Shown piece after piece: positions 7,530-47,090 of a stretch of DNA of 64,000 bases. Source of the DNA: Candidatus Woesearchaeota archaeon (lineage in GTDB: Archaea > Nanobdellota > Nanobdellia > Pacearchaeales > JAHJTO01); assembly GCA_964540065.1 (NCBI GenBank), contig CAZIKY010000001.1, positions 78,798 through 142,797 on the forward strand, in the 5' to 3' direction. Position numbers and translations under genes: made by a program. Below the pieces are notes generated by a model that did no database searches, was not told where the DNA came from, and worked only from the letters and a program-made list of their open reading frames with translations. The number at the start of each line of letters is the position of its first letter. Positions within the stretch are counted from its first letter, which is position 1.

Positions 7530-7553
7530 CCCAAAAATCACACTAATCCTATG

Positions 7554-7653
7554 CTCCCGTAGCTCAGCTTGGATAGAGCAATTGCCTTCTATTTCGAAGA
7601 AAATACCGAAGGAGCGAGCAATAGGTCGCAGGTTCAAATCCTGTCGGGAGCGT
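7554..7653 (+). tRNA. tRNA-Arg (anticodon TCT) with a 25-nt intron between positions 37 and 38
   Basis: Manual cloverleaf: acceptor GCTCCCG/CGGGAGC, D-stem GCTC/GAGC, anticodon stem ATTGC/GCAAT, loop CTTCTA|intron|A, T-arm GCAGG-TTCAAAT-CCTGT. Intron is tttcgaagaaaataccgaaggagcg. Mature length is 75 nt. Confidence 0.8.
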
Positions 7654-12866: not shown

Positions 12867-12880
12867 TTTAAAACTTTAAA

Positions 12881-14269: not shown

Positions 14270-14274
14270 TTCAA

Positions 14275-15423: not shown

Positions 15424-15924
15424 TTATCTCTTAATAGAAATACTTCTAAACTCCTCCTTACCAAATGTTTTTTCATCAAATAATTTTATTTCCTCTAATT
15501 GAATCTTATAAAGTTTAGATTCAAAAGCTTTTGAGTGAAAATCTCTTGGAGTTTTAACAAATTTTATTACGCGCGGATATCTCTTTATATAGAGCATCCC
15601 CGCTTTAATCAATTCATTCGAACTTACGCTTTTTGCTTTCCCCAAGGCTTGTAAACCCATCAAAAGAGTGCCCCATTTTTGAGTAGAATCAAAAATATTT
15701 ATGGCGACTTTTGAATTCTTGCTAATGTTTTTAGCACTTAAGGTGTCTTTAGATGTCCAAATATAGAGGTTAAACTCACCATCATAAACATAATAAGCAG
15801 TTTTACTGCATGGCCGGTCTCCATCAACTGTAGAAAGCGTTAAAAGATAATTATCTTTCAACAGATTATTTATCCGAGAGATAATTTTTTCCCTATCTCC
15901 AGCATGCTTTGTCAATATTTTCAT
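15424..15924 (-). CDS. Pyridoxamine-5'-phosphate-oxidase-like FMN-binding split-barrel protein
   Basis: 166 aa with composition and motifs resembling the PNPOx / general-stress-26 family. Confidence 0.45.
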   Translation of the reverse strand: MKILTKHAGDREKIISRINNLLKDNYLLTLSTVDGDRPCSKTAYYVYDGEFNLYIWTSKDTLSAKNISKNSKVAINIFDSTQKWGTLLMGLQALGKAKSVSSNELIKAGMLYIKRYPRVIKFVKTPRDFHSKAFESKLYKIQLEEIKLFDEKTFGKEEFRSISIKR

Positions 15925-17282
15925 TTCACAACAACACTCTTTATATTACAAAATTCAAGTATGCCATACCTTGAAAGCTCCCTTCCAACTCCCGATTTTT
16001 TTATTCCCCCAAAGGGAAGCCTTGGATCCGATGCAACAATTTTGTTTATCGAAACTGCCCCTGCTTCAAGCTTATGTGCAAGCCTTTCTGCTTTTTTCAT
16101 GTCCGTAGTCCAAACACTGGCGCCCAAGCCAAAATCTGAATCATTAGCCATCCTAATTGCTTCTTCATCGCTTACTGCAGAAATAAGTGGCATAACCGGT
16201 CCAAAAACTTCTTCTTTCTCTAAAGGCATCCCTTTTTTAACACCGACTAGGACGGTGGGTTGGTAAAAATAGCCTTTCATGTCAAGCCTCTGCCCGCCGT
16301 ATAAAACCCTTGCTCCCGCTTTAACCGATTGCCTTACTTGCCTATCAAGATTCTCAAGCTGATTTTCCCTTACCATCGGACCTATTTGAGTTGATTTTTC
16401 CATAGGATCACCCACTTTCAATTGTGAAACAAGGTCTGCCGTTCTCTTTTTGAATTCCTCAAACTTGTTTTTATGTATAATAAATCTCTTTGCAGCTATG
16501 CAGCTCTGCCCGGTGTTTATAAATCTGCCCTTAAGGGCATTGTCGCAGGTAAAATTCACATCTGCATCACTCAAAACAACAAAAGGATCGCTGCCTCCTA
16601 ATTCAAGAACGACTTTTTTTGAATTTTTAATTGCTATACCGCCGACATGTCTTCCAACATTAACACTTCCAGTGAAAGAGACCCCATTTACGCCGGGAGA
16701 CTGAATCAGCTTTTCAGCAACTTGTGTTGTTCCGATAATATTTTGAAAAACGTTCTTTGGCAAAGCCTCAGAGAAGATTTCGTGCATCGCTTCAGAGCAC
16801 CCCAAAGTAACAGTTGAATGCCTTAAAAGAACGGTATTTCCTGCAAGCATGGCCGGAACCCCAAATCTGAAAACCTGCCAAAAAGGAAAATTCCAAGGCA
16901 TTATGCATGCAATGACTCCTAGCGGATCAAAATGCACATAGGATCTCTTATATTCAGTCTTAATAATTTCATCCTGCAAAAATTTCTCAGCATTATCTGC
17001 AAAATACTCGCAGAGCCAAGCGCACTTCTCAATTTCCCCGATGCTTTCTGAAATGGGTTTTCCCATTTCAGCAGTCATTAGAGCAGCAAACTCTTCTTTT
17101 CTGCTAAGAAGGGTTTTTCGAGCTTTCCTAACATAGCTTGCTCTTTCAGCCACACTTAACTCTTTCCAAGAAGAAAGGGCTTTTTTAGAATTGTCCACAT
17201 ATCTTGAGACTTCAGACAGCTTAATCGACTTATATTTTTTTATTTTCTGCTCCGTTGCAGGATTTAGCGTCCAAAGATCCAT
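15921..17282 (-). CDS. NAD(P)-dependent aldehyde dehydrogenase
   Basis: 453 aa with ELGGSDP (catalytic Glu) and GQSCIAAKR (catalytic Cys) ALDH signatures. Confidence 0.85.
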   Translation of the reverse strand: MDLWTLNPATEQKIKKYKSIKLSEVSRYVDNSKKALSSWKELSVAERASYVRKARKTLLSRKEEFAALMTAEMGKPISESIGEIEKCAWLCEYFADNAEKFLQDEIIKTEYKRSYVHFDPLGVIACIMPWNFPFWQVFRFGVPAMLAGNTVLLRHSTVTLGCSEAMHEIFSEALPKNVFQNIIGTTQVAEKLIQSPGVNGVSFTGSVNVGRHVGGIAIKNSKKVVLELGGSDPFVVLSDADVNFTCDNALKGRFINTGQSCIAAKRFIIHKNKFEEFKKRTADLVSQLKVGDPMEKSTQIGPMVRENQLENLDRQVRQSVKAGARVLYGGQRLDMKGYFYQPTVLVGVKKGMPLEKEEVFGPVMPLISAVSDEEAIRMANDSDFGLGASVWTTDMKKAERLAHKLEAGAVSINKIVASDPRLPFGGIKKSGVGRELSRYGILEFCNIKSVVVK

Positions 17283-17285
17283 TCT

Positions 17286-18728
17286 CTAAAGATTGTTGTC
17301 GAAGAAGATATGCTTGACATTAGTATATTCTTCGAGAGAATAAGTGCTCAAATCGCTTCCATGGCCGGACTGCTTAACTCCTCCGTGAGGCATTTCGCTT
17401 ACTAAAAACAAATGAGTATTTACCCATACTTCTCCAAACTTAAGTTTGTTTGCAACATTGAATGCTTTCTTTACGTCCTTAGTCCAAACACTGCTTGCAA
17501 GGCCATAATCCACATCATTTGATTTCTCAATAACTTCTTCCATTGTCTTAAACTTCAAAACCGGGATAACCGGGCCAAATACCTCAAGTTGACAAAGGTT
17601 AGAAACCTGTGTGACTCCAGTCATAATATGTATGGGGAAGAAATAACCTTTGCCTGAAGGTTTTTTCCCTTCAAAAGCTACCTTTACTCCTTTCTCTTTC
17701 TTAGAATCTTCGACAAATCTGCTGACTCTTTGGAGGTGGACTTTAGAGTTCAAGGGCCCGAGATCTGTTTTGTCACTAGATGGATCTCCAAGTTTAAGTC
17801 CAGAGGCATATTTTTTCATCTTTGCAACAAATGTATCATGTATCTTCTCTTGAACATAAATCCTCGCAGCAGCAGTGCAATCTTGCCCAGAGTTTATAAC
17901 GCTAGCATCAACAGCAGTCTTAGCTGCCAAATCTAAATCTGCATCTTCAAAAACGATAAAGGGCGCTTTCCCCCCAAGTTCGAGATGCACTTTCTTCAAA
18001 TTTGAAGCCGCAAGTTTCTGTATGACTTTCCCGGTTTCAGTATTTCCGGTTAAAGAAATCATGTCGACTTTTTCATGGGAGGCTAAAGCGCTTCCGACAG
18101 CCTCGCCAGGACCAGTTATAACATTAAGCACCCCATTAGGCAAACCAGCTTCAACAGCAAGTTTTCCGAGCTCAAGAGTAGTCAGAGGGGTGGAAGTTGC
18201 AGGTTTAATAACAACCGTATTTCCCATAGCAAGTGCTGGGCCGATTTTCCATATGGCCATCATAAAGGGATAGTTCCATGGAGTGATGCTTGCAACAACT
18301 CCGACAGGTTCCCTCCGCAAAACACTTGTGCAGTTCTTGAAATAATCTTGAGAGCTAACATCTTTTATATTTCTTGCAGCACCCGCAAAGAATCTCAAAT
18401 TATCAATGGAAAAAATAATATCCTCTTTTGCAAGTTTAACTGTCTTCCCTTGATTTTCTGACTCGAGCTTAGCAAGCTTATCCAAATTCTTCTCGATCAA
18501 ATCTGCAAGTTTAAGGAGAACTAAAGAACGCTCTTTTACTGTTAATCCGCTCCAAACTCCTGAATCGAAAGCTTTTCTCGCAGAATTAACTGCTGCATCG
18601 ATATCTTTTTTATCGGAAGATGCAACTTTTGCGATAACTTGTTCGGTATAAGGGTTAAGGACATCAAGATATTTTTTAGAATTATTTACAGATTTTCCAT
18701 CTATTAAGTTATCGTACGATTTCACCAT
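17286..18728 (-). CDS. NAD(P)-dependent aldehyde dehydrogenase (second, tandem)
   Basis: 480 aa with LELGGKAP and GQDCTAAAR ALDH signatures. Confidence 0.85.
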   Translation of the reverse strand: MVKSYDNLIDGKSVNNSKKYLDVLNPYTEQVIAKVASSDKKDIDAAVNSARKAFDSGVWSGLTVKERSLVLLKLADLIEKNLDKLAKLESENQGKTVKLAKEDIIFSIDNLRFFAGAARNIKDVSSQDYFKNCTSVLRREPVGVVASITPWNYPFMMAIWKIGPALAMGNTVVIKPATSTPLTTLELGKLAVEAGLPNGVLNVITGPGEAVGSALASHEKVDMISLTGNTETGKVIQKLAASNLKKVHLELGGKAPFIVFEDADLDLAAKTAVDASVINSGQDCTAAARIYVQEKIHDTFVAKMKKYASGLKLGDPSSDKTDLGPLNSKVHLQRVSRFVEDSKKEKGVKVAFEGKKPSGKGYFFPIHIMTGVTQVSNLCQLEVFGPVIPVLKFKTMEEVIEKSNDVDYGLASSVWTKDVKKAFNVANKLKFGEVWVNTHLFLVSEMPHGGVKQSGHGSDLSTYSLEEYTNVKHIFFDNNL

Positions 18729-29018: not shown

Positions 29019-29588
29019 TTAAGGCCTAAGCCATCTCGCTTCATAATAGGTAACATCTCCTTCGTCATCAACAACTGCAATAAGAAGATTCTTTTTAGTT
29101 GAATGCGCAACCCTGTTTTTGGCGGCAAACTCATGCCAGGTAAGGCTTGAACTTTCATGCACTGGGAAAACAATCCATTTGGCGTGTTCCTCCCCCATCT
29201 TTACACCTTTCTCATAAACCCTGAAATCTGCTCCAAACTTCAAGGCAGTCTTGACAAGATATCCTCTGCCCCTCAGATCTGCAAAAACCAGGTACCTAGT
29301 CATAAAACCTGAATCTGCCTTGCTTACTTCCTTCAAAAAAGATTCTGAGGATAATTTCTTTCCGCCTTTAAAAATTTCCATCTTGCCTTTCTGGATAAGA
29401 TAAAAAGATTCAACAAGTGAGTAGTTCACTTTCCCTTCAATCATCTCCCCAAATCTGCTTTTGCTGTATAGATTTACAGCTTCAGAAGAATTGCTTATCA
29501 CTTTTTCTGCAGAGAAGGCTGCCTTAATCTTCTTCCCCTGAAGCTTTTCTTGAGATTCTAAAGATTTGGTTTTCTTGGTTTTTGCCAT
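29019..29588 (-). CDS. endA: tRNA-splicing endonuclease (homotetramer-type catalytic subunit)
   Basis: 189 aa. FADLRGRGYLVKTALKFGADFRVYE and downstream His match the EndA catalytic domain. The size fits alpha4-type EndA. Confidence 0.85.
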   Translation of the reverse strand: MAKTKKTKSLESQEKLQGKKIKAAFSAEKVISNSSEAVNLYSKSRFGEMIEGKVNYSLVESFYLIQKGKMEIFKGGKKLSSESFLKEVSKADSGFMTRYLVFADLRGRGYLVKTALKFGADFRVYEKGVKMGEEHAKWIVFPVHESSSLTWHEFAAKNRVAHSTKKNLLIAVVDDEGDVTYYEARWLRP

Positions 29589-32580: not shown

Positions 32581-32662
32581 GCGGAGATGCCGGAGCGGTC
32601 AAACGGGTCACGTTTAGGCCGTGATGCTTAGTGCTACAGAGGTTCGAATCCTCTTCTCCGCA
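32581..32662 (+). tRNA. tRNA-Leu (anticodon TAG), class II with long variable arm
   Basis: Acceptor GCGGAGA/TCTCCGC, anticodon stem TCACG/CGTGA with loop TTTAGGC, 13-nt variable arm, T-arm AGAGG-TTCGAAT-CCTCT. Confidence 0.8.
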
Positions 32663-32683
32663 CTTTTAATCAAAAGAGGTTGT

Positions 32684-34477
32684 ATGGGGATAAAAGACAA
32701 TCCAATTTTTCTCTTATCTAGAAAAACTTGGGAGTACTCTAAGGGCAATAGGCACAAGGTAGCCTTATATCTTTTCATGTTTATCTGTGCTAATTTAATT
32801 TTTCTTACAGAACCCCTCATCGTTGCAAAAGTATTAAACACAATCCAAGAAGAGGGGGTGAGCTATGAAAATCTCTCACTAATACTTCTCCTTCTTTCAA
32901 CACTCGTAGCCGTAACATTGGGCTTTTGGGCATTCCATGGACCTGCCAGGGTAATTGAAAATCAAAATGCTTTCTTAGTAAGGGCAAACTATCAGAAGCG
33001 CATGCTTGAAGGAACAATGGCCTTGCCAGCATCGTGGCATGCAGATCATCATTCTGGAGACACTATTGACAAAATCCAAAAGGGTTCAAACGCTTTATTC
33101 GAATTTTCTGCCAGAAGTTTTATGATTGTAGAAGCCATAGTTGGGACCTTCGGAGCATACATCGCTCTAGCTTATTTTAATATTCATTCAACATATATAG
33201 TCTTGCCAGTAATGATTCTCACAATCTTATTTATGATAAAGTTTGACCAAAGGCTGTCCAAACAATATGAAGAGTATTACAAGCTTGAAAACAAAGTCTC
33301 TGCCAAAGTTTATGACACAATAGGAAACATAACCACTGTCACGGCCTTGAGAATGGAAAAAATCATTTCAAAGTCGCTTTTTCAAAAGATTATGCAGCCC
33401 TTGGGTCTGTATAAAAAGAATATAAGGCTGAATGAGAAAAAGTGGTTCATGGTTTCAGTATCTGGATCGATCCTTTTCTTTTTAGTTGTATCCAGCTACA
33501 TCATATCTAGCCTTAACAACGGTGTTCCAATATTGATCGGCACAGTCTACGCATTATATGGATATATCTACAGGATAAATGGGGTGTTTTTCCAATTAGC
33601 GTGGATTTACAATGACATGATAAGGGAAAAAAGTGCTGTGCTTAACTCGGAAGAGATCTCAAAAGAATTCAAAGAGATCAAAAAGAGCGACAAAAATATG
33701 TTGAAAGATTTAAAGTGGGAAGAGCTTAGCATGAAAAATTTGAATTTCTCTTATCACACAAAAGAGGGGGCAGATTTACATTTAGATAATATCTCTGTTT
33801 CGATAAAAAGAAATGAGAAGGTAGCATTTATTGGAGCAAGCGGCAGCGGAAAAACAACGCTTCTAAGATTAATGAGAGAGATTTATATCCCTAAAAGTGG
33901 AGAGATTTATCTAGATAAAATCCCGCTGAAAGAAGGTTTTAAAGATATAAGTCAAGGAATCTCTTTCATCCCCCAAGAGCCAGAACTGTTTGCAACGACC
34001 ATCAAAGAAAATATCACTATGGGTGCTACAACTGACGGCAAAAAAATAAGAAAATTTACAGATATGGCAAATTTCACCCCAGTTATTGAAAGGCTTCCAA
34101 AAAGACTGGATTCATATATCTTCGAAAAAGGGGTTAATCTAAGTGGCGGGGAGAAACAGCGCTTAGCCCTTGCAAGGGGCCTGATGGCATCAGAAGATAA
34201 GCAGATTGTCCTACTTGATGAGCCAACCAGCAGTGTAGATCTTAAAAATGAGTTTGCAATATATAGCAATATTTTTGAAAAGTTTAAAGATAAAACAATA
34301 ATCTCTACAATGCATAGGTTGCATTTGCTGCCTTTGTTCGACAGGATTTACTTCTTTAGAAACGGAAAAGTGATAGTGTCCGGAACATTCGAAGAGATTA
34401 TCCAAAACTCTCCAGAATTCAGGAAGATATGGAAAAGGCATGAAGCTTTGATTAAAGCTAAAGAAAGGGCAAAATAA
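32684..34477 (+). CDS. ABC exporter, fused permease-ATPase (MsbA/MdlB-like)
   Basis: Six predicted TM helices, then Walker A GASGSGKTTLLRLM, signature LSGGEKQRLALARGL and Walker B VLLDEPTS. The start is taken at the internal ATG (MGIKDNP...) because the track ORF from 32621 overlaps tRNA-Leu. Confidence 0.8.
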   Translation: MGIKDNPIFLLSRKTWEYSKGNRHKVALYLFMFICANLIFLTEPLIVAKVLNTIQEEGVSYENLSLILLLLSTLVAVTLGFWAFHGPARVIENQNAFLVRANYQKRMLEGTMALPASWHADHHSGDTIDKIQKGSNALFEFSARSFMIVEAIVGTFGAYIALAYFNIHSTYIVLPVMILTILFMIKFDQRLSKQYEEYYKLENKVSAKVYDTIGNITTVTALRMEKIISKSLFQKIMQPLGLYKKNIRLNEKKWFMVSVSGSILFFLVVSSYIISSLNNGVPILIGTVYALYGYIYRINGVFFQLAWIYNDMIREKSAVLNSEEISKEFKEIKKSDKNMLKDLKWEELSMKNLNFSYHTKEGADLHLDNISVSIKRNEKVAFIGASGSGKTTLLRLMREIYIPKSGEIYLDKIPLKEGFKDISQGISFIPQEPELFATTIKENITMGATTDGKKIRKFTDMANFTPVIERLPKRLDSYIFEKGVNLSGGEKQRLALARGLMASEDKQIVLLDEPTSSVDLKNEFAIYSNIFEKFKDKTIISTMHRLHLLPLFDRIYFFRNGKVIVSGTFEEIIQNSPEFRKIWKRHEALIKAKERAK

Positions 34478-34529
34478 TAGACCGATAAGGCACCACAATA
34501 ATCTATTTATAGATGATTTTCTACAAATA

Positions 34530-35156
34530 ATGATGAGATCCCTCGGAAGGTTATCTCTTGCAATTCTAACTGCTAGCTACGTTACTCTCTCTAATCCTTT
34601 AGAGATTTCAGCAGAAACTAAAGGTGCCGATAAGGGTAAAAAAGAGATCAAATACTTCAGGGGAAAATCAGATTATGATCCTGCAAAGGTAAAAGCTGAA
34701 AGGAAGAAACGGGCACAGGAAGATAAACAATATAGAGAAGTTGTCTTTGAAACATTCAAAGATTATGTCTCAACACTAATCGCCAAAGAATTCGGAGTAA
34801 TCCCTTATTTCTTTGCACCAAAATATTTTTCGAGATGGAAAGGGAAAATGGTTGACCTCAACCCAGAGGAGATAAAGGGCAACTTGAATAAAGCCCTAAG
34901 TGTCAAAGATTTCAGCAGAGTAAAACTCGAAGAATTGATTATTGGAGATGACCCGAATAATCAAGAGAGATTTAAGATAAGGAAACTGTCTGAATTCAGG
35001 AAAGAGTTTAGAGAAAGAGGGTACAAAGAGAAAATACTTTCAAATGACTATCTTGTAATCACAGACTTAAACAAGGAATTGCCTATTCAATCAAAAACTT
35101 TCTTCAGATGCGAAAAGGGTGATACCCGTTGTAAGATTATCGGTGTTTCTTATTAA
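34530..35156 (+). CDS. Secreted hypothetical protein
   Basis: 208 aa. N-terminal signal-like segment (LSLAILTASYVTLSNPLEISAE), then a highly charged K/E-rich body. Confidence 0.35.
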   Translation: MMRSLGRLSLAILTASYVTLSNPLEISAETKGADKGKKEIKYFRGKSDYDPAKVKAERKKRAQEDKQYREVVFETFKDYVSTLIAKEFGVIPYFFAPKYFSRWKGKMVDLNPEEIKGNLNKALSVKDFSRVKLEELIIGDDPNNQERFKIRKLSEFRKEFRERGYKEKILSNDYLVITDLNKELPIQSKTFFRCEKGDTRCKIIGVSY

Positions 35157-38100
35157 GCTACTTCTAGGCATAACCGGCTTCCAGAGTTATATTCACAATT
35201 TAGCTTTGCTACACTCGTGCATGCTTCATTCGTGCAAGCAGAAGGATTACCGTCAAATTCACTACATGAAGGGGCGGAGGCACATGAGCTGCAGCTCCCA
35301 AAAGAGTCTTCAAAAGGCCATATTTCTGGCTTGTAATAACATGAAGTGTAAGAAAGTTCATTCCCTTTTATCTCAAGGGCGATGTTGCCGCAGTTATTTC
35401 TTGTGCAAAGAGAAGTTACTCCCTTCCCACATTCTCCACAGCTTGAAGGATTATTTTTCTTAAAATTTTCAAACTCTTGAGCTTCAACTGCACTTAAGGT
35501 GATATTTATTCTTTTTCCGGGAGCAAGGCTTGCACTTTCCAAATTATTTTCCCTTATTATCTGCTGTACTTTAGATCTCGCCCGGTCATCAAGTTGAGAT
35601 TCATAACCATAAATCTTTCCTAGAGTATTCAAGACAAAATCTGCTAAAAGCTCTGTTCTAGAAACAGTATAATAAATTGTCTGCGGGGATCCCCAAGAAG
35701 TTATCTGGCCCCTCGTAGTTTGCTCTCCAGAAAAGACTATTCCATCTTGGGAATCTGCTACAGCAGATTCTTGACAAAGTCGGTAATTCTCCAGAATATC
35801 ATTAGTGTAAGAAACTACATTAGTTCCAAGATCATCTGCAAGTCTTCTTCCCCTAACCATGAATTGAGAAGAGCTTGTAGTCCTAATCACATTTTCAAGA
35901 TCACTCCAGGTATTAACTTTATAAAATTTTATGGCCCCTTCTAAATTTGGCCCCCCAACAAGATATTCTGCAAGTGCAAAACTTACTGGTTGATCTTTTC
36001 TCCGATGTTTATTATGGACACTTATTAGATGAGATAATCCTGCACGGATATTTGTTCTTGGGTCTTTAAGATCATCCGGATCAGTTATCTGTGGAGCAGG
36101 ACCATTTCTGCCAAATAAGATTTGCATAAGGCCTATAGCATTAGAAACAGAAACAGCATTAGGATTGCCACCAGACTCTCTCAAGATCAAGGCTTTTACA
36201 AGAGTATGTGTCTCGTATTCGCTATACCTTTCACTTGCGCCAATTTCAGCCATAACTTCCCTAATCAACTCACCATATTGGCTTTCAACATTGCTACATT
36301 TTAGTTTTTTGTTCCCTGCAGATTGCCCAGTGCCAGTCACTGTTTCAGTTGGTGCAGGCAAAGTTCTCAGCTCAGTAACAATCAATTTGTAGATCTCAAC
36401 GATTTTTATTCTAGACAATGCCTTATATCGGTTAGAGATGCTCGATTCTGCCACCCTATTAAACTCTGAGAATGCTCTGCTAGCCCTCAACGCCTCTGAG
36501 ATATCCTGGTCAATTACTGCTGATTCTTTTCTAGAGGTCTTTCCTTCACTTATTATCTTTTTCAGCTGCCTCAAAAGATTGTCAAGCTCTTCTTTTCTGT
36601 CGCCAGTAGTTAGTTTGCTGTAAATATCCCTGCTTTCCTGCTCAGTTACGATCTTCCCTTCCTGAGTCAAAAGATTAATGCTTTGATTCCTCGACTCTTC
36701 CAAAGTTAGATTTCTAAGTCCAAGATCCCTTATTGCATTGCTGACAGTATTTCTGTCCAGCCAGCAGCCAATCCTGCCGTCAGGATCACAGAATCCAACT
36801 TTATCCCATCTGTTAGGATCACTTCTCAAACCGGGATTATCTCCAGAGCAGATCCTTACAATTCCTCTCCTGTAAATTTCTGGCTGGACTGCCTCTCCAA
36901 TGCCTCCGACCCCTGGCTGAGCCAAAACTGGAAGGAGTGCTTCCGGCAAAGACTCTGCAGCAAGAAGAGTAGATTTTCCAGCAGTGCATTCATCTTCAGT
37001 CTTTATCTGATAATCTGGAACAGTCTGAGACGCAACATAATAATCTGTAATCTCTTGCACTCCAAATCCGGTTGTCGCTTTCTTAAATCCGCAATAATCT
37101 TTTAAGTTTACCCTTACACAAAGCTGCTTATATCCGCTAGGCAAAATTACATCCCGAGTTATATCTGCTGATTCTCCGATGGGGGTGTATCCTGTCTGTA
37201 TGATTGCCCTTTCAGGAATATTTATTGTGGGAACAAATGCTGGCTCCGCAAGATAAACGGTCCAGTAAGCCGGCTCATCTCTTCCGGCAAAGATATGCCA
37301 GAATACTTTGTATTGAGAGCTTTGAGGGACAGTAACTGATGAAAAGGGAATTTCATCAAACCAGGCATTTATTTGAACGGGAGACTCCGGTCTTGCAAGC
37401 TCATCGAACAGATTTGCAGAATCAGGATACCTTAAACCAATAAATGCCTTGCATAAGAAGCTTCCTGCTTCAGCAGTCGATCTGACTTGGAATGCCCTTA
37501 ACGCGTTTGCACCATAATAATTTGTAAAGAATTGTACTTGCTGGACGCTGTTTTCATAAGCGCTTGCAAATGTCATATATTCTCCGCCTCCGCCGCGGCC
37601 ATAGACTGTTCTTTCAACTAAATTGGGGATTCCAACTTTGAGTAAAGGTGTTAATTCTTTCCAGAAAAACTCGCAAAGATATACGCTTTTAAGCTGGTCG
37701 CATATTCCGACATTTCTTCCAGTCTCCAAATTTTCCTGAAGGCACCTTCTAACGTCTTTCAAAACACTCACTAAATTATCCAAACCTGCATGGACTCCAG
37801 TTAAACAAACTGGGACAGCAACTCCTCCTTTCTCTCCTCCGAGTATTCCTGGAACCCCTGCATTGGGCAGACACAATGCCAAACTCCCAACAATTCCTGT
37901 CTGCACAACATTATCTGTAGGGAATCTTCCTCCGAAGTCGCATCTGCTTGGAGGGCATAAAACTGGATCGCATAAGTTGTAAAGGAGATTACATCTTTCT
38001 GGAGACATGACATCTTCACATTCAATTCCGGGAGAAGTAGCCTTAGCTTGGCCAACCGGAACAGTTATTCCACATGAAGGAAGTGAAATTGGCTGTCCAA

Positions 38101-41100
38101 CTTTTGCATTCCTAGATTGTGAGGCGGCTTCCTTCAAGCATCTTGAAGCTTGGATGACAAAAAGCCTTGTCTGTTCTTCAGTAAGAGGCCCCAAACCACC
38201 TTGGCCTGGCTGATAATTCTCCGTAAGAGGGAAATATCTTGAGCAAGGAGAGTCGTCTCCTGAAGGATTGTCGACATAATCAATATTGCCATCTGGCCCA
38301 ACATTTGCTATCCAGAAGTGTGTGGGTTCTCCGGCTTCTGTATAAGACTCAACATTAGTTATGCCTGCCCTCAAGCTGTCTCCATACGGCCTTGTCGCCG
38401 CATACCATCCCTGGCTTCCATCTGGAGCTTGCCCTAAAGGAATAATTGCAGGCAATCCAGAATAAGGCCCGCTTCCCCAGTATCTTATCTCAGGATTCTG
38501 AAGTACATTGCTGCAGGATCTTCTTCCAGCAACCCTAAGCACTTTATTTCTCAAAACAACAGATTCAGGATCACTAACTTTAGTGACCTGCCCATTATCT
38601 AACTTGAAGTAATTTCCTGTAGGAAGATAAAAGTCTCCTTCACCTTTCGTGACAACCAAGCCGAATACTCCTGTGGCTACAAAAGGTTCAGCGAAGTCCG
38701 TCCTCGTTACCCTTGCATTTACTAAATTAATCAAGGCGATTGTGTCTCCTTCCTTAACCCCCAATCCTTCCAGATTTTGTGAAACTCCTGTAGTTTTTTC
38801 AAGGTCTTTTAAAGGTATTACGACTGCATCTGTGGCCTTGCCTTCAACGATTGTAGGTATGGTCGCTCTAAGATTGGGGAATATCTGGCTGACAGAATTT
38901 TTTGCTAAACTGGAATCCACAATGTTTTTGTGAAGAGTTTCATATTTAGTAAGCCTCTCAAAAAGTTTCTGTTCATATCCTTTACAGAATGCGCTACCAG
39001 GAGATAGTTCCTTTCCTTCACGGCACTTAGCAATAATCTGCGCTTCAGTATTCAGATCTCTGGTTTCTTCAAAGCTTAGGGTCTCATTTCCATAAAGACT
39101 TGAGAACCTGCTTAAGGCAGCACTGACTCTTGAAGGATCTAAAGTCTGATTCTGCCCATTTAAGTCAATACCACTTATCCCGCCGAGGTTATATCTGTTG
39201 AAAACTTCTGTCTGGAAAGCATCGACTAAAACTTTCCTGCCTTCAGGAGTTATAGTCTCTTTGCAGATTATTCCAATAAATGTGCAGTCTTTTTTTATTA
39301 CTCCCGGGGTTTTCTTAAGGGTCTCACTTAGCTTATTGGAATCTTCAATAACATTTTGCAGAGAATCTATCTGCTTTCCGATATCTTCACGAGATTTAAA
39401 AATGCATTCGTTGAAATCATTAGTCCCTATGCTCTGTTGATTAGATTTTTCATTGCACCATTCAGTCCATCCTTTGTAAGTTCCTCCTCTTGCACCAGTA
39501 AGGGTAGCTTCCCTCATGACAATCTGTCTGGCAAGAGCCTCCCCCTTTGAAACAAAATTTTCTATGAAATTTGTGGCCCAGATAGCTGCACTTCCTGCAA
39601 GGCAAACTTTTCTCCAAGTCATCACAAGATCTCCTAATCTTTGAGTGATTTCCTCAAATTGAGTGATAGTATTATCAAGCTGGGAGATCAAAGATTTTGT
39701 CTGTTCAGTACTAAGTTTTATTGCCCTCTTTTCTATCCCAATATGCACTGAGAAATTTGCAAAGGTCTCGCCTTCTTTGCTAAACGGATGAATTGAAACT
39801 GTAGCTTGCCTCTGAAGATTTATTCTCTCAAGCCGTACGTCGATTGTATCACTTAATTTCTCTGACTGCCCTCTTCTTAATGTGACTTCACTTCTCTTTA
39901 ACTGCTCATTTGGCCTGAAGTCGCTTATCCTTCTTAGGAATACTGAAGTTTCATCAATCCGTTCAACCTGCCAATCCGATCCGATCACTTCCTTAAAACC
40001 AACAGTCCTAATTTCATTATTGACAAAGATCTCTGCTCCAAGTTCTGCAGTTGTTGGCCTGGATAAAGTCTCCAAAGCAACATAATAAGTTCTTCCGCCT
40101 GAAGAGATAATCTTGGTAGCTTCATTTGTGTCTCCAGAAGAATAAATATCCTTAAGTCTCTGCCTTGCTTTTGGAGTCTTTGTTGACTGAGGATATCTGT
40201 TGATTATTTCTTCAAGAATTTTTACTTGATCTTGGTTTTTTCCCAATATCCTTGCAGTTTCAGCTGCCTGCCATAAGGCATTCTCACCAAGGAATTCTCC
40301 CTGAGGCGTATCTACTTCTTTTTCGTTAGGGAAATCTTTAACGACAGTTTCATAATTTGCCTTGTACAAAGCATAATATTTCTCCACGACAGGCTGATAG
40401 CTCTGCTGAAGTATCGCATCCACGCTTACAACCTCAATAACTACCCCATCAACAAGGCTATCGCTCCTATCAACTACAACAATTGAATCCGATCCGGCAA
40501 CTTCCCTTAAGGCCGAAGCAAAACTGCTTTGACTAGAAGCTTTAGCTCTGACATCAGATCCAGCAAGGAACCGCTCTATCCTCTTGTTCGTCTCAGTTAT
40601 CTGTTTTGGATCTCTTGTTTTTTGAAGTACCACTATTTTCCATTCTTCATTAAAGTTTTCTCTCGGAATAAGGTACTTCCCAACAAAAGAAACAGTGAAG
40701 TTGGAAGTTGGCTTTCCAGCCACATTCACTGAAAGCAAATCTCCTCCTCTGTACTCTTTGATCCCCTCTTCTCCTACCTTTATCCTTGCTATCGCTCCAG
40801 GCTTATTCAAAACATAAAGACCCTCGGGACATTGCAGCGAAACTCTTCCGCCGACCCCATACGATGAAGGGGAAACCTCTGTAACCCTGCACCGATTATC
40901 TAAAACCATCATCCCTTCACCGATATCAATGGAATTTCCGTTAACATTTAAGGTAGCTTTATCTTTAGGTGCATCTATTTGATTTAGCCGGATATTCAAT
41001 CCGGCACCGCAGTACATTCCCGGAAGGTAGACCAAAGAGGACCTTTTTCCAGGTTCAAGAGTGAAAGTCTGTAAAGGTCTTTCAGGTCCGGCATAAATTG

Positions 41101-41839
41101 CGACTTGAGCAGTATTTCCACTTATTCCAAGAACACGCACATAACCCTTGCCGTTCCAGAATCCATATCTCTGATAATCTCTTTGCCATTGCTCCTCTGT
41201 TAGAACTGGGAGAATAAAGTTGTCATTCGTTATTCCAAAGCTTGTGGTGACGTCATAGGTTATCCTAGCAGTTAAATTTGCATTTATCGAATCTGGCATG
41301 TCTCTCTCTGCAGGAATCTGATTTAAAACAACGACTACATATCCTAATTCTCCGCTTATAGGAGAACCGACAAGCTCATCAAAAGGAGTTGTCTGCTTTA
41401 AGGCAGCCCTATATGGGTGGAAAAGAATCGCCTTTATTCCTTCAGGAGCCCTGGCCCCAGAAGCAAAGTTTACACTCCTTATATGGGGCACTTCTATAAG
41501 AGGATTCGTTTTCAAAGTAGTTAGTTTGCAAAATACTGGAATGGACTGTTCTTCAAGAAGGTCAGATCTTACAACAGCAGGGCTGCAGGATCCTGGAAGA
41601 ATATTAAGCACAAAATCCTGCCCTTGTCCGTCCTGGCAGAATTGCTGGTCAATTGTCGGGAAATAATATTTTGAAGCTTCTCCATAATAACTGAACGGCG
41701 AATATTGGTAAGAGGGTATGGCTGAAACTTGCGCAGAAACAAATGCTGGATCAGAAACTAAGAATACTGCAAAAGCTACTGCTAAAATTATCGAAAACTT
41801 CTTCATTAAAAGTTTTTTATTTATTTCTCCTTTTGCCAT
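35153..41839 (-). CDS. Giant (2228 aa) secreted, Cys-rich surface protein with a C-proximal GH23/SLT lytic-transglycosylase-like domain
   Basis: Uninterrupted 6.7-kb ORF. Sec-type signal peptide (KKFSIILAVAFAVFLVSDPAFVSAQV). SLT motifs LILRESGG (catalytic Glu at about residue 1888, nt 36176..36178), AIGLMQI and ALAEYLVGGPN. A mid-protein and a C-terminal Cys-rich segment (last about 95 aa). Confidence 0.7.
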   Translation of the reverse strand: MAKGEINKKLLMKKFSIILAVAFAVFLVSDPAFVSAQVSAIPSYQYSPFSYYGEASKYYFPTIDQQFCQDGQGQDFVLNILPGSCSPAVVRSDLLEEQSIPVFCKLTTLKTNPLIEVPHIRSVNFASGARAPEGIKAILFHPYRAALKQTTPFDELVGSPISGELGYVVVVLNQIPAERDMPDSINANLTARITYDVTTSFGITNDNFILPVLTEEQWQRDYQRYGFWNGKGYVRVLGISGNTAQVAIYAGPERPLQTFTLEPGKRSSLVYLPGMYCGAGLNIRLNQIDAPKDKATLNVNGNSIDIGEGMMVLDNRCRVTEVSPSSYGVGGRVSLQCPEGLYVLNKPGAIARIKVGEEGIKEYRGGDLLSVNVAGKPTSNFTVSFVGKYLIPRENFNEEWKIVVLQKTRDPKQITETNKRIERFLAGSDVRAKASSQSSFASALREVAGSDSIVVVDRSDSLVDGVVIEVVSVDAILQQSYQPVVEKYYALYKANYETVVKDFPNEKEVDTPQGEFLGENALWQAAETARILGKNQDQVKILEEIINRYPQSTKTPKARQRLKDIYSSGDTNEATKIISSGGRTYYVALETLSRPTTAELGAEIFVNNEIRTVGFKEVIGSDWQVERIDETSVFLRRISDFRPNEQLKRSEVTLRRGQSEKLSDTIDVRLERINLQRQATVSIHPFSKEGETFANFSVHIGIEKRAIKLSTEQTKSLISQLDNTITQFEEITQRLGDLVMTWRKVCLAGSAAIWATNFIENFVSKGEALARQIVMREATLTGARGGTYKGWTEWCNEKSNQQSIGTNDFNECIFKSREDIGKQIDSLQNVIEDSNKLSETLKKTPGVIKKDCTFIGIICKETITPEGRKVLVDAFQTEVFNRYNLGGISGIDLNGQNQTLDPSRVSAALSRFSSLYGNETLSFEETRDLNTEAQIIAKCREGKELSPGSAFCKGYEQKLFERLTKYETLHKNIVDSSLAKNSVSQIFPNLRATIPTIVEGKATDAVVIPLKDLEKTTGVSQNLEGLGVKEGDTIALINLVNARVTRTDFAEPFVATGVFGLVVTKGEGDFYLPTGNYFKLDNGQVTKVSDPESVVLRNKVLRVAGRRSCSNVLQNPEIRYWGSGPYSGLPAIIPLGQAPDGSQGWYAATRPYGDSLRAGITNVESYTEAGEPTHFWIANVGPDGNIDYVDNPSGDDSPCSRYFPLTENYQPGQGGLGPLTEEQTRLFVIQASRCLKEAASQSRNAKVGQPISLPSCGITVPVGQAKATSPGIECEDVMSPERCNLLYNLCDPVLCPPSRCDFGGRFPTDNVVQTGIVGSLALCLPNAGVPGILGGEKGGVAVPVCLTGVHAGLDNLVSVLKDVRRCLQENLETGRNVGICDQLKSVYLCEFFWKELTPLLKVGIPNLVERTVYGRGGGGEYMTFASAYENSVQQVQFFTNYYGANALRAFQVRSTAEAGSFLCKAFIGLRYPDSANLFDELARPESPVQINAWFDEIPFSSVTVPQSSQYKVFWHIFAGRDEPAYWTVYLAEPAFVPTINIPERAIIQTGYTPIGESADITRDVILPSGYKQLCVRVNLKDYCGFKKATTGFGVQEITDYYVASQTVPDYQIKTEDECTAGKSTLLAAESLPEALLPVLAQPGVGGIGEAVQPEIYRRGIVRICSGDNPGLRSDPNRWDKVGFCDPDGRIGCWLDRNTVSNAIRDLGLRNLTLEESRNQSINLLTQEGKIVTEQESRDIYSKLTTGDRKEELDNLLRQLKKIISEGKTSRKESAVIDQDISEALRASRAFSEFNRVAESSISNRYKALSRIKIVEIYKLIVTELRTLPAPTETVTGTGQSAGNKKLKCSNVESQYGELIREVMAEIGASERYSEYETHTLVKALILRESGGNPNAVSVSNAIGLMQILFGRNGPAPQITDPDDLKDPRTNIRAGLSHLISVHNKHRRKDQPVSFALAEYLVGGPNLEGAIKFYKVNTWSDLENVIRTTSSSQFMVRGRRLADDLGTNVVSYTNDILENYRLCQESAVADSQDGIVFSGEQTTRGQITSWGSPQTIYYTVSRTELLADFVLNTLGKIYGYESQLDDRARSKVQQIIRENNLESASLAPGKRINITLSAVEAQEFENFKKNNPSSCGECGKGVTSLCTRNNCGNIALEIKGNELSYTSCYYKPEIWPFEDSFGSCSSCASAPSCSEFDGNPSACTNEACTSVAKLNCEYNSGSRLCLEVA

Positions 41840-41857: not shown

Positions 41858-43720
41858 TTATCTAAGTGTAATTCCAACAGTTGAAACTGCAATATTATTG
41901 TAAACGTCCTGCAGTTCCAAAACAGTTCTAGGGGTTGGCTGCGCACCAATCTCCACACCAACGAAACTTGCTGCTTCCAAATCTTCATCTGTAAACATTA
42001 CATCAGCAGTGCCACCGCCGATAGTAAGCTGATTGAGCTCTTGGGCAGGCTGACTGATAGTATAACATTCTTCTCTGTCAAAGCCTAAAACTCCGAACAG
42101 TCCGCTTCTAGGAACACTCACACATTTCTCAACGCTTTGTGCTTCAAGGACGATCCTTCCTTCTTTGAAAAGGTAAGAAGTTACCTTATAGTTCCCCTCA
42201 ACAAGATTTATTCTATTCTGTTCTGGATATAAAATGCTTTCAGTAGCGTCTTCAGAACTGAATGTTACTAAAGCAGTCTCGCCCTCTTCCAGCCTTACGA
42301 GATCCTTAAGTACAACAACTTCAAGATTATGCTTTGGCTTCATTATAACAACTGCGCTTTCCACTTCATTCGTTGAAACTTGGACCCTTGCATCAGCATA
42401 GCCTTCTTTTTTAGCGATGATAAATCCGTTAACGCATTGAGGGAATTGTCCTTCAAGATTTCCTTCCTCTGCAAAGCCTACTCGACAGACGGTCCCTGCG
42501 CATTTAAAGCTTACATCTGCTTCAACAGAAAATCCTTGGAGATCAATCACATCTACATTAACCTCTTGGGTCTTGAATTGGCAAAGCTCCTGCACTTCTC
42601 CTTCCGGACTTTCGATTGGAACTTCTCCTCTTGGAAGATTATTTTCAACTGAGACAATCACGGGAAATTGGAAAAGACCGAAGTCTTCATCGAAAATTTG
42701 CACCATTACTGGATAAGTAACGGTATAGACGAAGTGATAAGGGACATAACAGAATCCCAGTATTCCGAGCCCCTCTTGGTTTCCTATTGGGTCTGCCCTT
42801 AAAAGATCATCAGTAGAAGGGACTATCTCTATTTTTGTGGGGAAATTTTGATCATAAATGAAATTCACTTGTTCTCCTTCTAAGCCAAGATCCAGGTCTC
42901 TTTCAAAATATTTTCTTTCATCACTTGAAAGATCATAGTAATTTCCGGCGACCCTTATTGTAGGGATGTTGTCTGCAAGTGCAGTCTTAAGATCGCTAAC
43001 AATTTGTTGCTTCTGCCATATCTTGGGGCTGCAGGTCAATTCAACTCCTGTCCCCGGGACATATAATGCGAGGATATCTGTGGTGTACTCTTCAAAAAAC
43101 TTAAGATTTTTATGCCGGTCATAAAGTGCTGTAGACAGATCATAAAGCCTTCCAAAATTGCTTCTTACAGAAGTAGAGTAAGAAGTGATCCTTCTCGAGG
43201 TCTGTTGGTAATCGATTGTAACAGGCCATTCAAGATCCACATAAACTCTGTCAGACCTCAGATCAACATTTATATTAGAAGGCTCTTCCAAAGTAAAGAC
43301 ATAGCCTTCTTGTTCAAGAGCGGAAAAGTCACAGTTAAGAAGATTTTGAGAGATATAATCCTCTAGTTGATTTTCCATCGAGCTTATAGAAGGGACTTGC
43401 TCTTTGTATATTCCATTTGCAGAGAGGTAAAACCAGAAAGGAATTGTTGATCCAAAAAATTCTAACTGGGAAGTTGAAGGAGCATATTCGCTTCCAGGTT
43501 CAAACTCTGGAAGTTCAATGTATCCGCCTTGTTCCCCCATAGTTTCAAGACCCTCGAGAGCCAAGTCAGAAACGCACCCTAAAATTTGATCATTAACTGG
43601 CGCAACATCTGCAGGCAGACCAAACGGCCTCAAACCTAAAGAGTATGCAAGAACAATTCCTGCGACAAGCAAAATCGCAATGATTACATATAGGGCAATC
43701 TGGCCTTTCTTATTCGACAT
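41858..43720 (-). CDS. Acidic secreted protein with an N-terminal class III (type IV pilin-like) signal/anchor
   Basis: The probable start is the internal ATG giving MSNKKGQIALYVIIAILLVAGIVLAYSLG (K-K-G then a hydrophobic helix). About 620 aa. The track ORF from 43837 overlaps tRNA-Val, so its N-terminal extension is discounted. Confidence 0.5.
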   Translation of the reverse strand: MSNKKGQIALYVIIAILLVAGIVLAYSLGLRPFGLPADVAPVNDQILGCVSDLALEGLETMGEQGGYIELPEFEPGSEYAPSTSQLEFFGSTIPFWFYLSANGIYKEQVPSISSMENQLEDYISQNLLNCDFSALEQEGYVFTLEEPSNINVDLRSDRVYVDLEWPVTIDYQQTSRRITSYSTSVRSNFGRLYDLSTALYDRHKNLKFFEEYTTDILALYVPGTGVELTCSPKIWQKQQIVSDLKTALADNIPTIRVAGNYYDLSSDERKYFERDLDLGLEGEQVNFIYDQNFPTKIEIVPSTDDLLRADPIGNQEGLGILGFCYVPYHFVYTVTYPVMVQIFDEDFGLFQFPVIVSVENNLPRGEVPIESPEGEVQELCQFKTQEVNVDVIDLQGFSVEADVSFKCAGTVCRVGFAEEGNLEGQFPQCVNGFIIAKKEGYADARVQVSTNEVESAVVIMKPKHNLEVVVLKDLVRLEEGETALVTFSSEDATESILYPEQNRINLVEGNYKVTSYLFKEGRIVLEAQSVEKCVSVPRSGLFGVLGFDREECYTISQPAQELNQLTIGGGTADVMFTDEDLEAASFVGVEIGAQPTPRTVLELQDVYNNIAVSTVGITLR

Positions 43721-43796
43721 TTTCCCTCTTTTAAGCTCATTTAAAGAGGAAAAAGTGATATATAAAGGTTGTTCAATAATCTCGAAGAAAAATAAA

Positions 43797-43868
43797 TGAC
43801 CCCAGGAGGAGTCGAACCTCCATTTGGTCCACGTCAAGGACCCGTCATAGCCGCTAGACCATGGGGTC
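43797..43868 (-). tRNA. tRNA-Val (anticodon GAC)
   Basis: Minus-strand cloverleaf: acceptor GACCCCA/TGGGGTC, anticodon stem GGTCC/GGACC with loop TTGACGT, T-arm GGAGG-TTCGACT-CCTCC. A TTTAAAAC box lies about 30 nt upstream at 43897..43904. Confidence 0.8.
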
Positions 43869-43905
43869 AGTCATAACGTTGATAGAAAAGCGCGTGTTTT
43901 AAAGA

Positions 43906-46403: not shown

Positions 46404-47090
46404 CTACACGACCCTAATAATCATCCATATTCCTAAAAGTATTAACACTAAGCCTAAGGATAGTCTCATCAATCCCCTGTGTTTAAGCCTCCAGCTTTCT
46501 AGTTTTTTAATTGAAGCGCCCTTGAATACTGCAAAAAGAATAACTATTAGGGGCAAGATGAAAATAAGATTATAAAGGACAAGCAGGGTAAAATTGCTTA
46601 TTGTTAATCCCGAAAGAGACATGAGGCTTAAAACGGCCAAGTAAACTGCTCCAGTACATGGAAGCTCGACTAAGGCTACAAATGCTCCCAAAAAGAAGGC
46701 AGTACTAAGCTTTCCCGAAACCCTTTTAACATAAACTTTTATCCTTTCTGCTTCCTTGGGAAAGATCATAAGGCTTGGCCCCAAACCATACCAAAAATAA
46801 TCCTTTATCTCAAGAAGCCCTGCAACTATAATAATCGCTGCAAGAACAATATAAGATATAACTGAGAACCTTCCAAGCTGCTGGATTATCGGGAGAATTA
46901 AAAGCCCTGCAAGAAGATAAGTTATGAAAACCGCAGAAATATAAACTAATCCATTGACTAAAATTTTTCCCCTCTCCTTGAAAGTTTTAGTAAGATATGC
47001 CAACAAGAATATCAGGACCCCAAAAGCACAAGGGTTGATTGCATCTACAGCAGCCGCTCCGATAATTAAAGGGATATTTACTTCAGCCAT
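46404..47090 (-). CDS. ccdA: CcdA/DsbD-family thiol-disulfide transporter membrane protein
   Basis: 228 aa polytopic protein with the two conserved intramembrane Cys (INPCAFG and ELPCTGA). Confidence 0.7.
   Translation of the reverse strand: MAEVNIPLIIGAAAVDAINPCAFGVLIFLLAYLTKTFKERGKILVNGLVYISAVFITYLLAGLLILPIIQQLGRFSVISYIVLAAIIIVAGLLEIKDYFWYGLGPSLMIFPKEAERIKVYVKRVSGKLSTAFFLGAFVALVELPCTGAVYLAVLSLMSLSGLTISNFTLLVLYNLIFILPLIVILFAVFKGASIKKLESWRLKHRGLMRLSLGLVLILLGIWMIIRVV

Follow-up and report, generated by a model that had tools for sequence, protein, structure and literature searches.

Large extracellular proteins of Pacearchaeota and Woesearchaeota with a murein transglycosylase domain were grouped as fam00969, with lengths of up to 3,000 amino-acid residues (aa), in passages of Castelle 2021 (PMC8204110); these refer to Rinke 2013 and Castelle 2015 as sources of three earlier genomes and propose a role in binding or degrading bacterial walls. 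Passages of Vigneron et al. 2022 (PMC9723730) likewise report "large lytic murein transglycosylase" genes of glycoside hydrolase family 23 (GH23) in Woesearchaeota and propose predation, and excerpts of later papers (PMC10936187, PMC11537232) repeat the point. According to parts of a 2025 article in PLoS Biol (PMC12352652), archaeal peptidoglycan (PG) hydrolases kill bacteria in experiments, and Nanoarchaeota are rich in homologues. Here, we analysed a 64-kb stretch of contig CAZIKY010000001.1 from a Candidatus Woesearchaeota archaeon (hereafter the window), which contains a gene for a secreted 2,228-aa protein with a GH23-type SLT domain (the giant gene and the giant protein) and, directly upstream, a second gene (the partner gene).

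The giant protein is almost certainly a member of fam00969, which it matches, as far as the passages describe that family, in lineage, size class, extracellular nature, SLT/GH23 domain and proposed role. The finding of a giant SLT protein is already known, and the view taken in the original prediction that a murein-cleaving domain is unexpected in archaea does not stand: such DPANN proteins were reported in 2013–2015 and the family was described in 2021 (passages of PMC8204110). The family is defined by SLT in those passages, whereas here SLT is found in a minority of a wider scaffold family, as a cassette, and the scaffold has an obligatory pilin-like partner gene. The conserved entity is a ~1,700-aa scaffold together with the upstream partner gene, and SLT is not its defining feature. 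The swappable status of SLT, the pilin-like partner and the core synteny were not found in the passages of PMC8204110 and two of its supplementary files, or in those of related papers; priority is not claimed.

Nanohaloarchaeota have giant proteins called SPEARE (Hamm et al. 2019, PMC6642349), for which host attachment and breaching were proposed. These contain domains of the serine protease, laminin-G/adhesion and type III restriction-enzyme types, as well as a transmembrane helix near the C-terminus. Like them, the giant protein is of exceptional size, mostly extracytoplasmic and encoded by a DPANN symbiont, but it has none of the SPEARE domains (Pfam finds SLT only), no C-terminal hydrophobic segment and no sequence relationship with them, and it is presumed to act on the murein of bacteria, not on a haloarchaeal host. 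With the archaeal PG hydrolases, as presented in parts of PMC12352652, it shares bacterial-type PG-cleaving domains and shuffled architectures. However, the enzymes tested there are small secreted Halobacteria proteins with M23 and PG_binding_1, whereas the window hydrolase is appended to a lineage-specific scaffold of ~1,800 aa, and SLT was not found by a term search of that article. Finally, the family-1 lytic transglycosylases (Slt70, MltC, MltE/EmtA and MltF; PF01464, GH23) share E-S, GLMQ and a lysozyme-like helical fold. Compared with these bacterial enzymes, the window domain is C-terminal in an archaeal protein of 2,228 aa without lipobox or periplasmic context, its motif III is degenerate, and its producer has no murein of its own.

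A lineage-wide scaffold and its partner gene

The features on which the analysis centres are:

35153..41839, minus strand, stop codon included: giant gene, 2,228 aa, ATG start, no internal stops
41858..43720, minus strand: partner gene with a product of 620 aa, lying 18 bp upstream of the giant gene, N-terminus MSNKKGQIALYVIIAILLVAG, class III in form
35873..36298, minus strand: GH23/SLT lytic-transglycosylase domain (aa ~1848–1989) according to Pfam, NCBIfam, PDB and Foldseek, with E1888-S1889 and with GLMQ at aa 1902–1905

The giant gene is a single uninterrupted open reading frame (ORF) of ~6.7 kb and 2,228 codons, as originally read. Its product is identical to P0001, a protein on a 210,746-bp NCBI contig, and two homologues (P0005 and P0006) are colinear with 98–99% of it, SLT domain and Cys-rich tail included, so that a chimera or frameshift in this ORF is very unlikely.

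A word-index homologue search with the giant protein returned at least 250 matches. The best 120 listed were 1,735–2,983 aa long; where a source was named, it was Pace- or Nanoarchaeota or "archaeon", and a few entries bore generic functional labels. In BLAST alignments, aa ~50–1750 were matched in essentially all of these 120, compared with 3–9 for aa 1850–2228, and the homology common to all family members stopped near aa 1750. A scan of GTDB, with one genome per species, gave at least 600 pattern matches and 590 confirmed relatives, i.e., at least 590 species-representative loci carry the scaffold. Eighty loci were kept, labelled Pacearchaeota, Woesearchaeota, Nanoarchaeota/Nanoarchaeia or "archaeon", with the exception of one Aenigmarchaeum and one Diapherotrites. 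Complete genomes with the scaffold measure 648 and 711 kb (CP070794.1, CP061211.1), which fits the original assignment to a small-genome archaeon, as do the archaeal marker genes described below. A profile of the core (aa ~1120–1765), searched against 1.84 billion cluster representatives (50% identity clusters), matched 1,109 of them, 963 at E ≤ 1e-30. The family is therefore large and sharply bounded, and aa ~50–1750 form a lineage-wide scaffold of ~1,700 aa.

In 73 of the 80 loci, which is about every locus with enough upstream DNA, the giant gene is directly preceded by a homologue of the partner, at distances from an overlap of a few bases (a 4-base end overlap in many loci) to a gap of ~150 bp. 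In the window, the mechanical ORF start of the partner (43837) overlaps tRNA-Val (43796–43869); the real start is at 43720, and the recorded protein has 620 aa. The partner N-terminus is conserved in the family as [KR][GA]Q[VI][TS][IL]F[IV]I[IL]A[IL]V... The FlaFind rule, reportedly introduced by Szabo and co-workers in 2007, seeks [KRDE][GA][ALIFQMVED][ILMVTAS]x3 near the N-terminus, followed by a hydrophobic helix. By this type of rule, KKGQIALYVIIAILLVAG at the partner N-terminus qualifies as class III (type IV prepilin-like), and the motif was present in 49 of 69 partner homologues versus 8 of 705 control ORFs. The body of ~590 aa contains 9–10 invariant Cys and found no Pfam or PDB relative in profile and sequence searches. 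Genes for a prepilin peptidase or of PilB/PilC type were absent from the scanned ORFs of the window.

Downstream of the giant gene, the 80 loci hold TFB in 47 cases, S8e in 40, an RNase Z-like metallo-beta-lactamase in 37 and the tRNA-splicing endonuclease in 9; 47 loci have more than 3 kb of downstream DNA, and these may not coincide with the 47 TFB loci. Because both the partner linkage and the housekeeping synteny are conserved, the giant gene and its partner are a vertically inherited core operon, not an island, and the giant gene is predicted to be co-transcribed with the partner. The idea of a horizontally acquired domain fits the C-terminal cassette but not the gene as a whole, which has been inherited vertically within core synteny.

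An exchangeable C-terminal slot

All sequence past the scaffold end was taken from 70 species-representative loci and the window, and each tail was scanned with Pfam. Among these 71 tails, SLT was found in 9, M23 in 4, Amidase_3 in 3, and glucosaminidase and DUF1615 in 2 each; DUF2272, M10, ankyrin repeats, PT-HINT and Peptidase_S6 (weak, E = 2e-4) occurred once each, and about 50 tails (~70%) had no recognisable domain. Examples are SLT with Amidase_3 in L002, Amidase_3 in L014, M23 in L004 and L061, and DUF1615 in L051 and L064; the homologue P0037 combines M23 with NlpC/P60. In the best 120 homologues listed, 14 carried SLT and 31 carried any PG-related module, OmpA and NlpC/P60 included. 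Two loci have other contents: in the product of L050 (14999–17755), a PT-HINT pretoxin domain precedes ~300 residues without assignment, an architecture resembling that of polymorphic toxins, and L080 (15230–17911) ends in ankyrin repeats. The slot is thus not restricted to wall hydrolases.

The distribution of these modules was mapped onto a neighbour-joining tree of the family cores, and parsimony changes were compared with those of shuffled labels. Carriers of any PG-related module were strongly clustered (9 changes versus 27.7 after shuffling), and SLT itself was patchy, with 10 changes for 14 carriers against a shuffled mean of 13.6. The closest scaffold relatives among the matches listed (P0002–P0004, 47–48% identity) have no Pfam module. 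SLT is a minority, swappable C-terminal cassette on the wider scaffold. Relatives carry M23, Amidase_3, glucosaminidase, NlpC/P60, OmpA, DUF1615, PT-HINT or nothing in its place, so that wall cutting represents a clade-specific addition to a broader scaffold function.

This arrangement recalls the polymorphic toxins and effectors of the Rhs/YD, CdiA and MafB type, in which reportedly, following a survey by Zhang and co-workers in 2012, a long N-terminal part for delivery or presentation is conserved and the enzymatic cassette at the C-terminus varies. The likeness consists in a conserved N-terminal part and a C-terminal cassette swapped between close relatives, one of which has PT-HINT. The differences are several. 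The window protein has no pretoxin or releasing module, PT-HINT being found in 1 of the 71 tails (L050), and no conserved immunity gene accompanies it, as the downstream 208-aa ORF is convergent and has homologues in 0 of the 80 loci. Rhs, filamentous-haemagglutinin and other known delivery repeats are absent from the giant protein. In addition, the cassettes here are wall hydrolases rather than nucleases or deaminases, and in ~70% of the members no cassette can be recognised.

The SLT domain and the cassette of the window protein

Within the cassette, the SLT domain is followed by two further modules:

35453..35683, minus strand: small beta-alpha-alpha-beta module (aa ~2053–2129) by AlphaFold2 (AF2) topology, LysM-like but unproven
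35156..35440, minus strand: C-terminal Cys-rich module (aa 2134–2228) with 12 Cys, as read from the sequence

The hidden-Markov-model search proposed with the original prediction returned Pfam SLT (PF01464) well above threshold (48.5 bits versus a cut-off of 21.3, E = 7.8e-13, aa 1878–1947), and the isolated tail scored 51.7 bits when analysed alone. SLT was the sole domain found by the Pfam scan of the giant protein, the scaffold of which is covered by neither Pfam nor NCBIfam. The NCBIfam models EmtA, MltC, MltF and flagellar lytic transglycosylase matched at the same place, and the closest solved relative is E. coli MltE/EmtA (PDB 2y8p, E = 1.7e-5). In the alignment with MltE, E1888-S1889 within LILRESGGNPNAVS (motif I) corresponds to AIIAIESGGNPNAVS of the catalytic region and AIGLMQI (motif II, aa 1900–1906) falls on the GLMQ motif, which bears out the two family-1 motifs recognised earlier. 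The third, AEYLVGG, is AYNxG-like only; in the 15 of 28 family SLT sequences that align there, A is found in 15/15, Y in 13/15 and G in 15/15, and N is not kept.

In family-1 lytic transglycosylases, the motif-I Glu serves to cleave the (1,4) bond between N-acetylmuramic acid (MurNAc) and N-acetylglucosamine (GlcNAc) in murein, without hydrolysis and with 1,6-anhydroMurNAc as the product. Among the aligned family SLT modules, the catalytic E was present in 26/26 and the following S/T in 26/26. The GLMQ motif was also preserved (G 28/28, M 28/28, Q 27/28; each of the four positions in 25–28 of 28). As catalytic E-S and GLMQ have been retained in the SLT-bearing family members, selection for activity is suggested, and the modules look functional where present, judging from these alignments. 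Consistently, the AF2 model of aa 1848–1989 showed a lysozyme-like all-alpha fold with predicted local distance difference test (pLDDT) values of 70–87. The Foldseek matches of this model were MltF (E = 2.1e-4) and MltE (4hjy, target-length-normalised TM-score 0.61), so that the structure prediction suggested earlier for this region agrees with the profile search.

A LysM assignment for aa ~2053–2129 is based on Pfam at E = 0.15 and the predicted topology only, and this module found no sequence match in the PDB. The terminal Cys-rich module matched nothing in the PDB or Pfam. It is also present after SLT or glucosaminidase in P0005, P0006, P0009/L001, P0066 and L063; it follows SLT in P0005 and P0006 and glucosaminidase in P0009/L001, and is therefore itself mobile. 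The GC content at third codon positions was 0.24 for the SLT segment and 0.27 for the one after it versus 0.33–0.35 in the scaffold and ~0.34 in neighbouring genes, which, given the shortness of the SLT segment (160 codons), is a weak hint of a separate origin of the cassette.

Scaffold architecture and predicted structure

Two AF2 models were computed, model B for aa 36–860 (23 sequences; mean pLDDT 74, predicted template-modelling score 0.53) and model A for aa 1100–2228 (26 sequences; mean pLDDT 61.5). Together with the family alignment, they divide the protein as follows, from the N-terminus to the cassette:

41732..41839, minus strand: signal peptide (aa 1–36) with predicted cleavage VSA/Q, read from the sequence; hydrophobic 19-mers at aa 9–41
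40625..41614, minus strand: N-terminal beta-rich domains (aa ~76–405) from the alignment and model B, pLDDT mostly 75–93
40142..40393, minus strand: TPR-like helical domain (aa ~483–566) from model B
39731..40117, minus strand: second beta domain (aa ~575–703) from model B, pLDDT 61–91
39314..39730, minus strand: helical/hydrophobic conserved segment (aa ~704–842), IGIEKRAIKLS ... WRKVCLAGSAAIWATNF ... ARQIVMRE
38540..39292, minus strand: variable region (aa ~850–1100), aligned in ~82 of 120 homologues
38045..38488, minus strand: beta-rich domain (aa ~1118–1265) from model A, conserved in 120 of 120 homologues
37385..38038, minus strand: Cys-rich core (aa 1268–1485), most conserved part, with NLCDPVLCPPSRC, GIVGSLALCLPN, VPVCLTGVHAGLD, GICDQLKSVYLCEFFW and GGGGEY
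36728..37375, minus strand: beta-sandwich and scaffold end (aa ~1489–1704) from model A, pLDDT ~60–80
36365..36718, minus strand: helical linker (aa ~1708–1825), AF2 helices with pLDDT ~70–86, poorly conserved

The N-terminus, MAKGEINKKLLMKK-FSIILAVAFAVFLV-SDPAFVSA/Q (the slash marks the cleavage site), reads as the n, h and c regions of a classical Sec signal, and the "VxAQ" cleavage site also occurs in the consensus of the family alignment. The mean Kyte-Doolittle value exceeded 1.5 in just two 19-residue windows of the giant protein, namely the signal peptide and aa 1315–1334, and the same full-length hydropathy scan revealed no C-terminal transmembrane segment or anchor. Hence, a Sec-type signal without a C-terminal anchor, as originally described, is supported by both analyses. 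The 48 Cys of the protein include 12 at aa 2134–2224 and a dense cluster at aa 1256–1389, so that the two Cys-dense segments noted earlier, the second being the final 95 residues, were also recovered.

In the N-terminal part, the alignment shows invariant C68, C85, C104, C317 and C337 and the motif CSPAVVRSDLLEEQ, and the beta-rich domains found no specific structural relative in the PDB. The segment at aa ~704–842 has invariant K704, R705, C746, R771, M775, C795 and C812; within it, aa ~706–765 (~39545–39724) have pLDDT values of 34–59 despite high conservation. This pattern is repeated in the Cys-rich core (aa 1268–1485), which contains a string of invariant Cys and Gly-rich hydrophobic motifs. 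Its mean conservation is 0.64 versus 0.45 elsewhere and its mean pLDDT 38 versus 71 elsewhere, and it has no Pfam, NCBIfam or PDB match and no recognisable fold. It is possible that the core folds only in a complex, only with its disulfides formed or only in a membrane. The beta-sandwich (aa 1489–1585) gave generic ApaG/FnIII-like matches in Foldseek. Profile and sequence searches of the scaffold against the PDB yielded a weak TPR match and spurious short matches only. The part of the protein outside the SLT domain is, as originally stated, devoid of library domains, but it does not consist of repeats: distinct beta-rich domains, a TPR-like domain, helices and the Cys-rich core were found instead.

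Genomic context and host

The marker genes of the window are archaeal (TYW1, archaeal apgM, MiaB-like-B, TFB, S8e, S3Ae, GINS51, tRNA-splicing endonuclease and diphthamide synthase), and its GC content is 39%. The host is a DPANN archaeon of the Nanoarchaeota type. A 100-nt tRNA gene with a ~29-nt intron (7553–7652, plus strand) was found by Rfam and missed by ARAGORN in bacterial mode, and the tRNA-splicing endonuclease gene lies at 29019–29588.

In the window, the giant gene is separated from the otherwise conserved S8e/TFB block by inserted genes (32581–35156), namely a tRNA-Leu, an MsbA/HlyB-type ABC exporter (32621–34477) and an orphan ORF of 208 aa, which may reflect a small integration beside a tRNA gene. 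The 208-aa ORF (34530–35156) is coiled-coil-like and convergent and overlaps the stop of the giant gene. Neither gene was retained as a part of the system, as homologues of the exporter occur near the giant gene in 3 of the 80 loci and those of the 208-aa ORF in none. A DsbD/CcdA-type thiol-disulfide transporter (PF02683, PF11139) is encoded at 46404–47090 (minus strand), ~4.5 kb from the genes of both Cys-rich exported proteins, and may be relevant to the disulfides of the giant protein and the partner.

Farther away, the large subunit of a class II-type ribonucleotide reductase (59389–62700, plus strand) is interrupted by an intein (Intein_splicing, LAGLIDADG_3 and Hint_2) that carries a LAGLIDADG homing-endonuclease domain. 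A catabolic run at 10790–18728 (minus strand), unusual for a reduced DPANN genome, comprises genes for a Glu/Leu/Phe/Val dehydrogenase, a pyridine-nucleotide disulfide oxidoreductase, a class III aminotransferase, a saccharopine dehydrogenase, a PNPOx-like protein and two aldehyde dehydrogenases, and may be a lysine or polyamine degradation cluster. The leucyl-tRNA synthetase (4925–7492, minus strand) matched the editing domain PF13603 at E = 2.4e-66, which we take to be typical of bacterial-type enzymes, so that this one is possibly of bacterial type.

Proposed function and rival explanations

We consider it probable that the giant protein is a surface protein that opens bacterial PG at cell contacts. 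The archaeon would display the scaffold on its surface, where the partner, embedded in the membrane or in a pilus, may retain it, and the helical linker of ~120 residues would present the SLT cassette to a contacted bacterium. E1888 would then cleave MurNAc-GlcNAc bonds and open the sacculus locally, so that the archaeon could reach the bacterial membrane or take up nutrients released from the wall. Because archaea of this group are not known to make murein, SLT must have a foreign substrate. The original suggestion of host attachment or wall breaching is the most reasonable reading, and the literature proposes the same for the family, but the pseudomurein-containing target considered along with it is unsupported. 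Several points weigh against this proposal. All support for it is in silico, the tether through the partner is pure inference, the third transglycosylase motif is degenerate, and the most conserved part of the scaffold, the core at aa 1268–1485, could not be modelled. Some GH23 enzymes act on other GlcNAc polymers. Furthermore, the basic function of the family is something other than wall cutting, because most family members have no recognisable wall-degrading module.

An unlikely alternative has the protein, or a cleaved cassette, shed to kill competing bacteria at a distance, in the manner of halobacterial PG hydrolases, with the scaffold only as carrier or pro-domain. The Sec signal and the missing membrane anchor are compatible with release, PG hydrolases that kill are known from archaea, with Nanoarchaeota prominent among them (parts of PMC12352652), and the relative L050 has a self-cleaving PT-HINT before its last ~300 aa. 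However, the Pfam scan of the window protein found neither PT-HINT nor a protease site, the strict linkage to a pilin-like partner points to an assembly that stays bound to the cell, and a mere carrier role leaves unexplained a 1,700-aa scaffold that is mostly lysin-less in genomes of 0.65–0.71 Mb. The scaffold is equally unaccounted for if the cassette digests free or dead-cell PG to feed an auxotrophic archaeon that has no living host, which we regard as rather improbable. Pacearchaeota do hold other murein-recycling enzymes, such as muramoyltetrapeptide carboxypeptidase (excerpts of PMC11537232), and relatives combine glycosidase, amidase and endopeptidase modules (L002, P0037), as complete digestion would require; yet lytic transglycosylases release anhydro-muropeptides, which need dedicated uptake and recycling genes, none of which was seen near the giant gene among the scanned ORFs of the window.

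An improbable reading makes the giant protein a structural, S-layer-like or organising component of the envelope, with SLT as an incidental and possibly inactive accretion. Its lineage-wide, vertical occurrence in housekeeping synteny by TFB, S8e and RNase Z and the hydrolase-less majority of members would suit such a role, but the catalytic residues are conserved in every SLT copy, and Woesearchaeota express separately annotated S-layer genes (passages of PMC11606122). The scaffold also departs in character from such components. Many invariant Cys and hydrophobic Gly-rich segments, as found here, are untypical of S-layer proteins. Last, an assembly chimera or a gene derived from a virus or mobile element (tape-measure, tail lysin) is essentially refuted. 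The SLT region matched endolysin, lytic tail protein and tape-measure families in PHROGs, and the exporter, tRNA-Leu and orphan ORF are inserted just downstream; however, the PHROGs matches are confined to the SLT domain, colinear full-length homologues exist and the housekeeping synteny is conserved. Moreover, no relative of the giant protein was found in 2.9 million viral contigs, and a search of the BFVD viral folds with the N-terminal half (model of aa 36–860) returned no match.

Beyond wall opening at contacts, it is conceivable, although doubtful, that the scaffold and its pilin-like partner constitute an undescribed cell-contact apparatus of Pacearchaeales and Woesearchaeales. The core (aa 1268–1485, and aa ~706–765) would be membrane-active, of a pore or fusion type, and the C-terminus would be a polymorphic effector slot set by the host envelope, filled with murein hydrolases for bacteria and with other modules or none otherwise.

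Biological implications

To our knowledge, no member of Pacearchaeota or Woesearchaeota has been cultivated. A murein-cleaving surface protein is one of the few genomic hints that some members have bacterial rather than archaeal hosts and is already used as such in the literature. The present analysis refines this use: the hydrolase is a swappable tail on a lineage-wide scaffold with a partner, and the type of tail could mark the type of host. Scaffold and partner amount to ~1.3% of a 0.7-Mb genome and are a well-defined target for studies of cell contact. If the cell-contact apparatus outlined above were real, it would be an archaeal counterpart of polymorphic-toxin and contact-dependent delivery and would provide a genomic read-out of bacterial host use.

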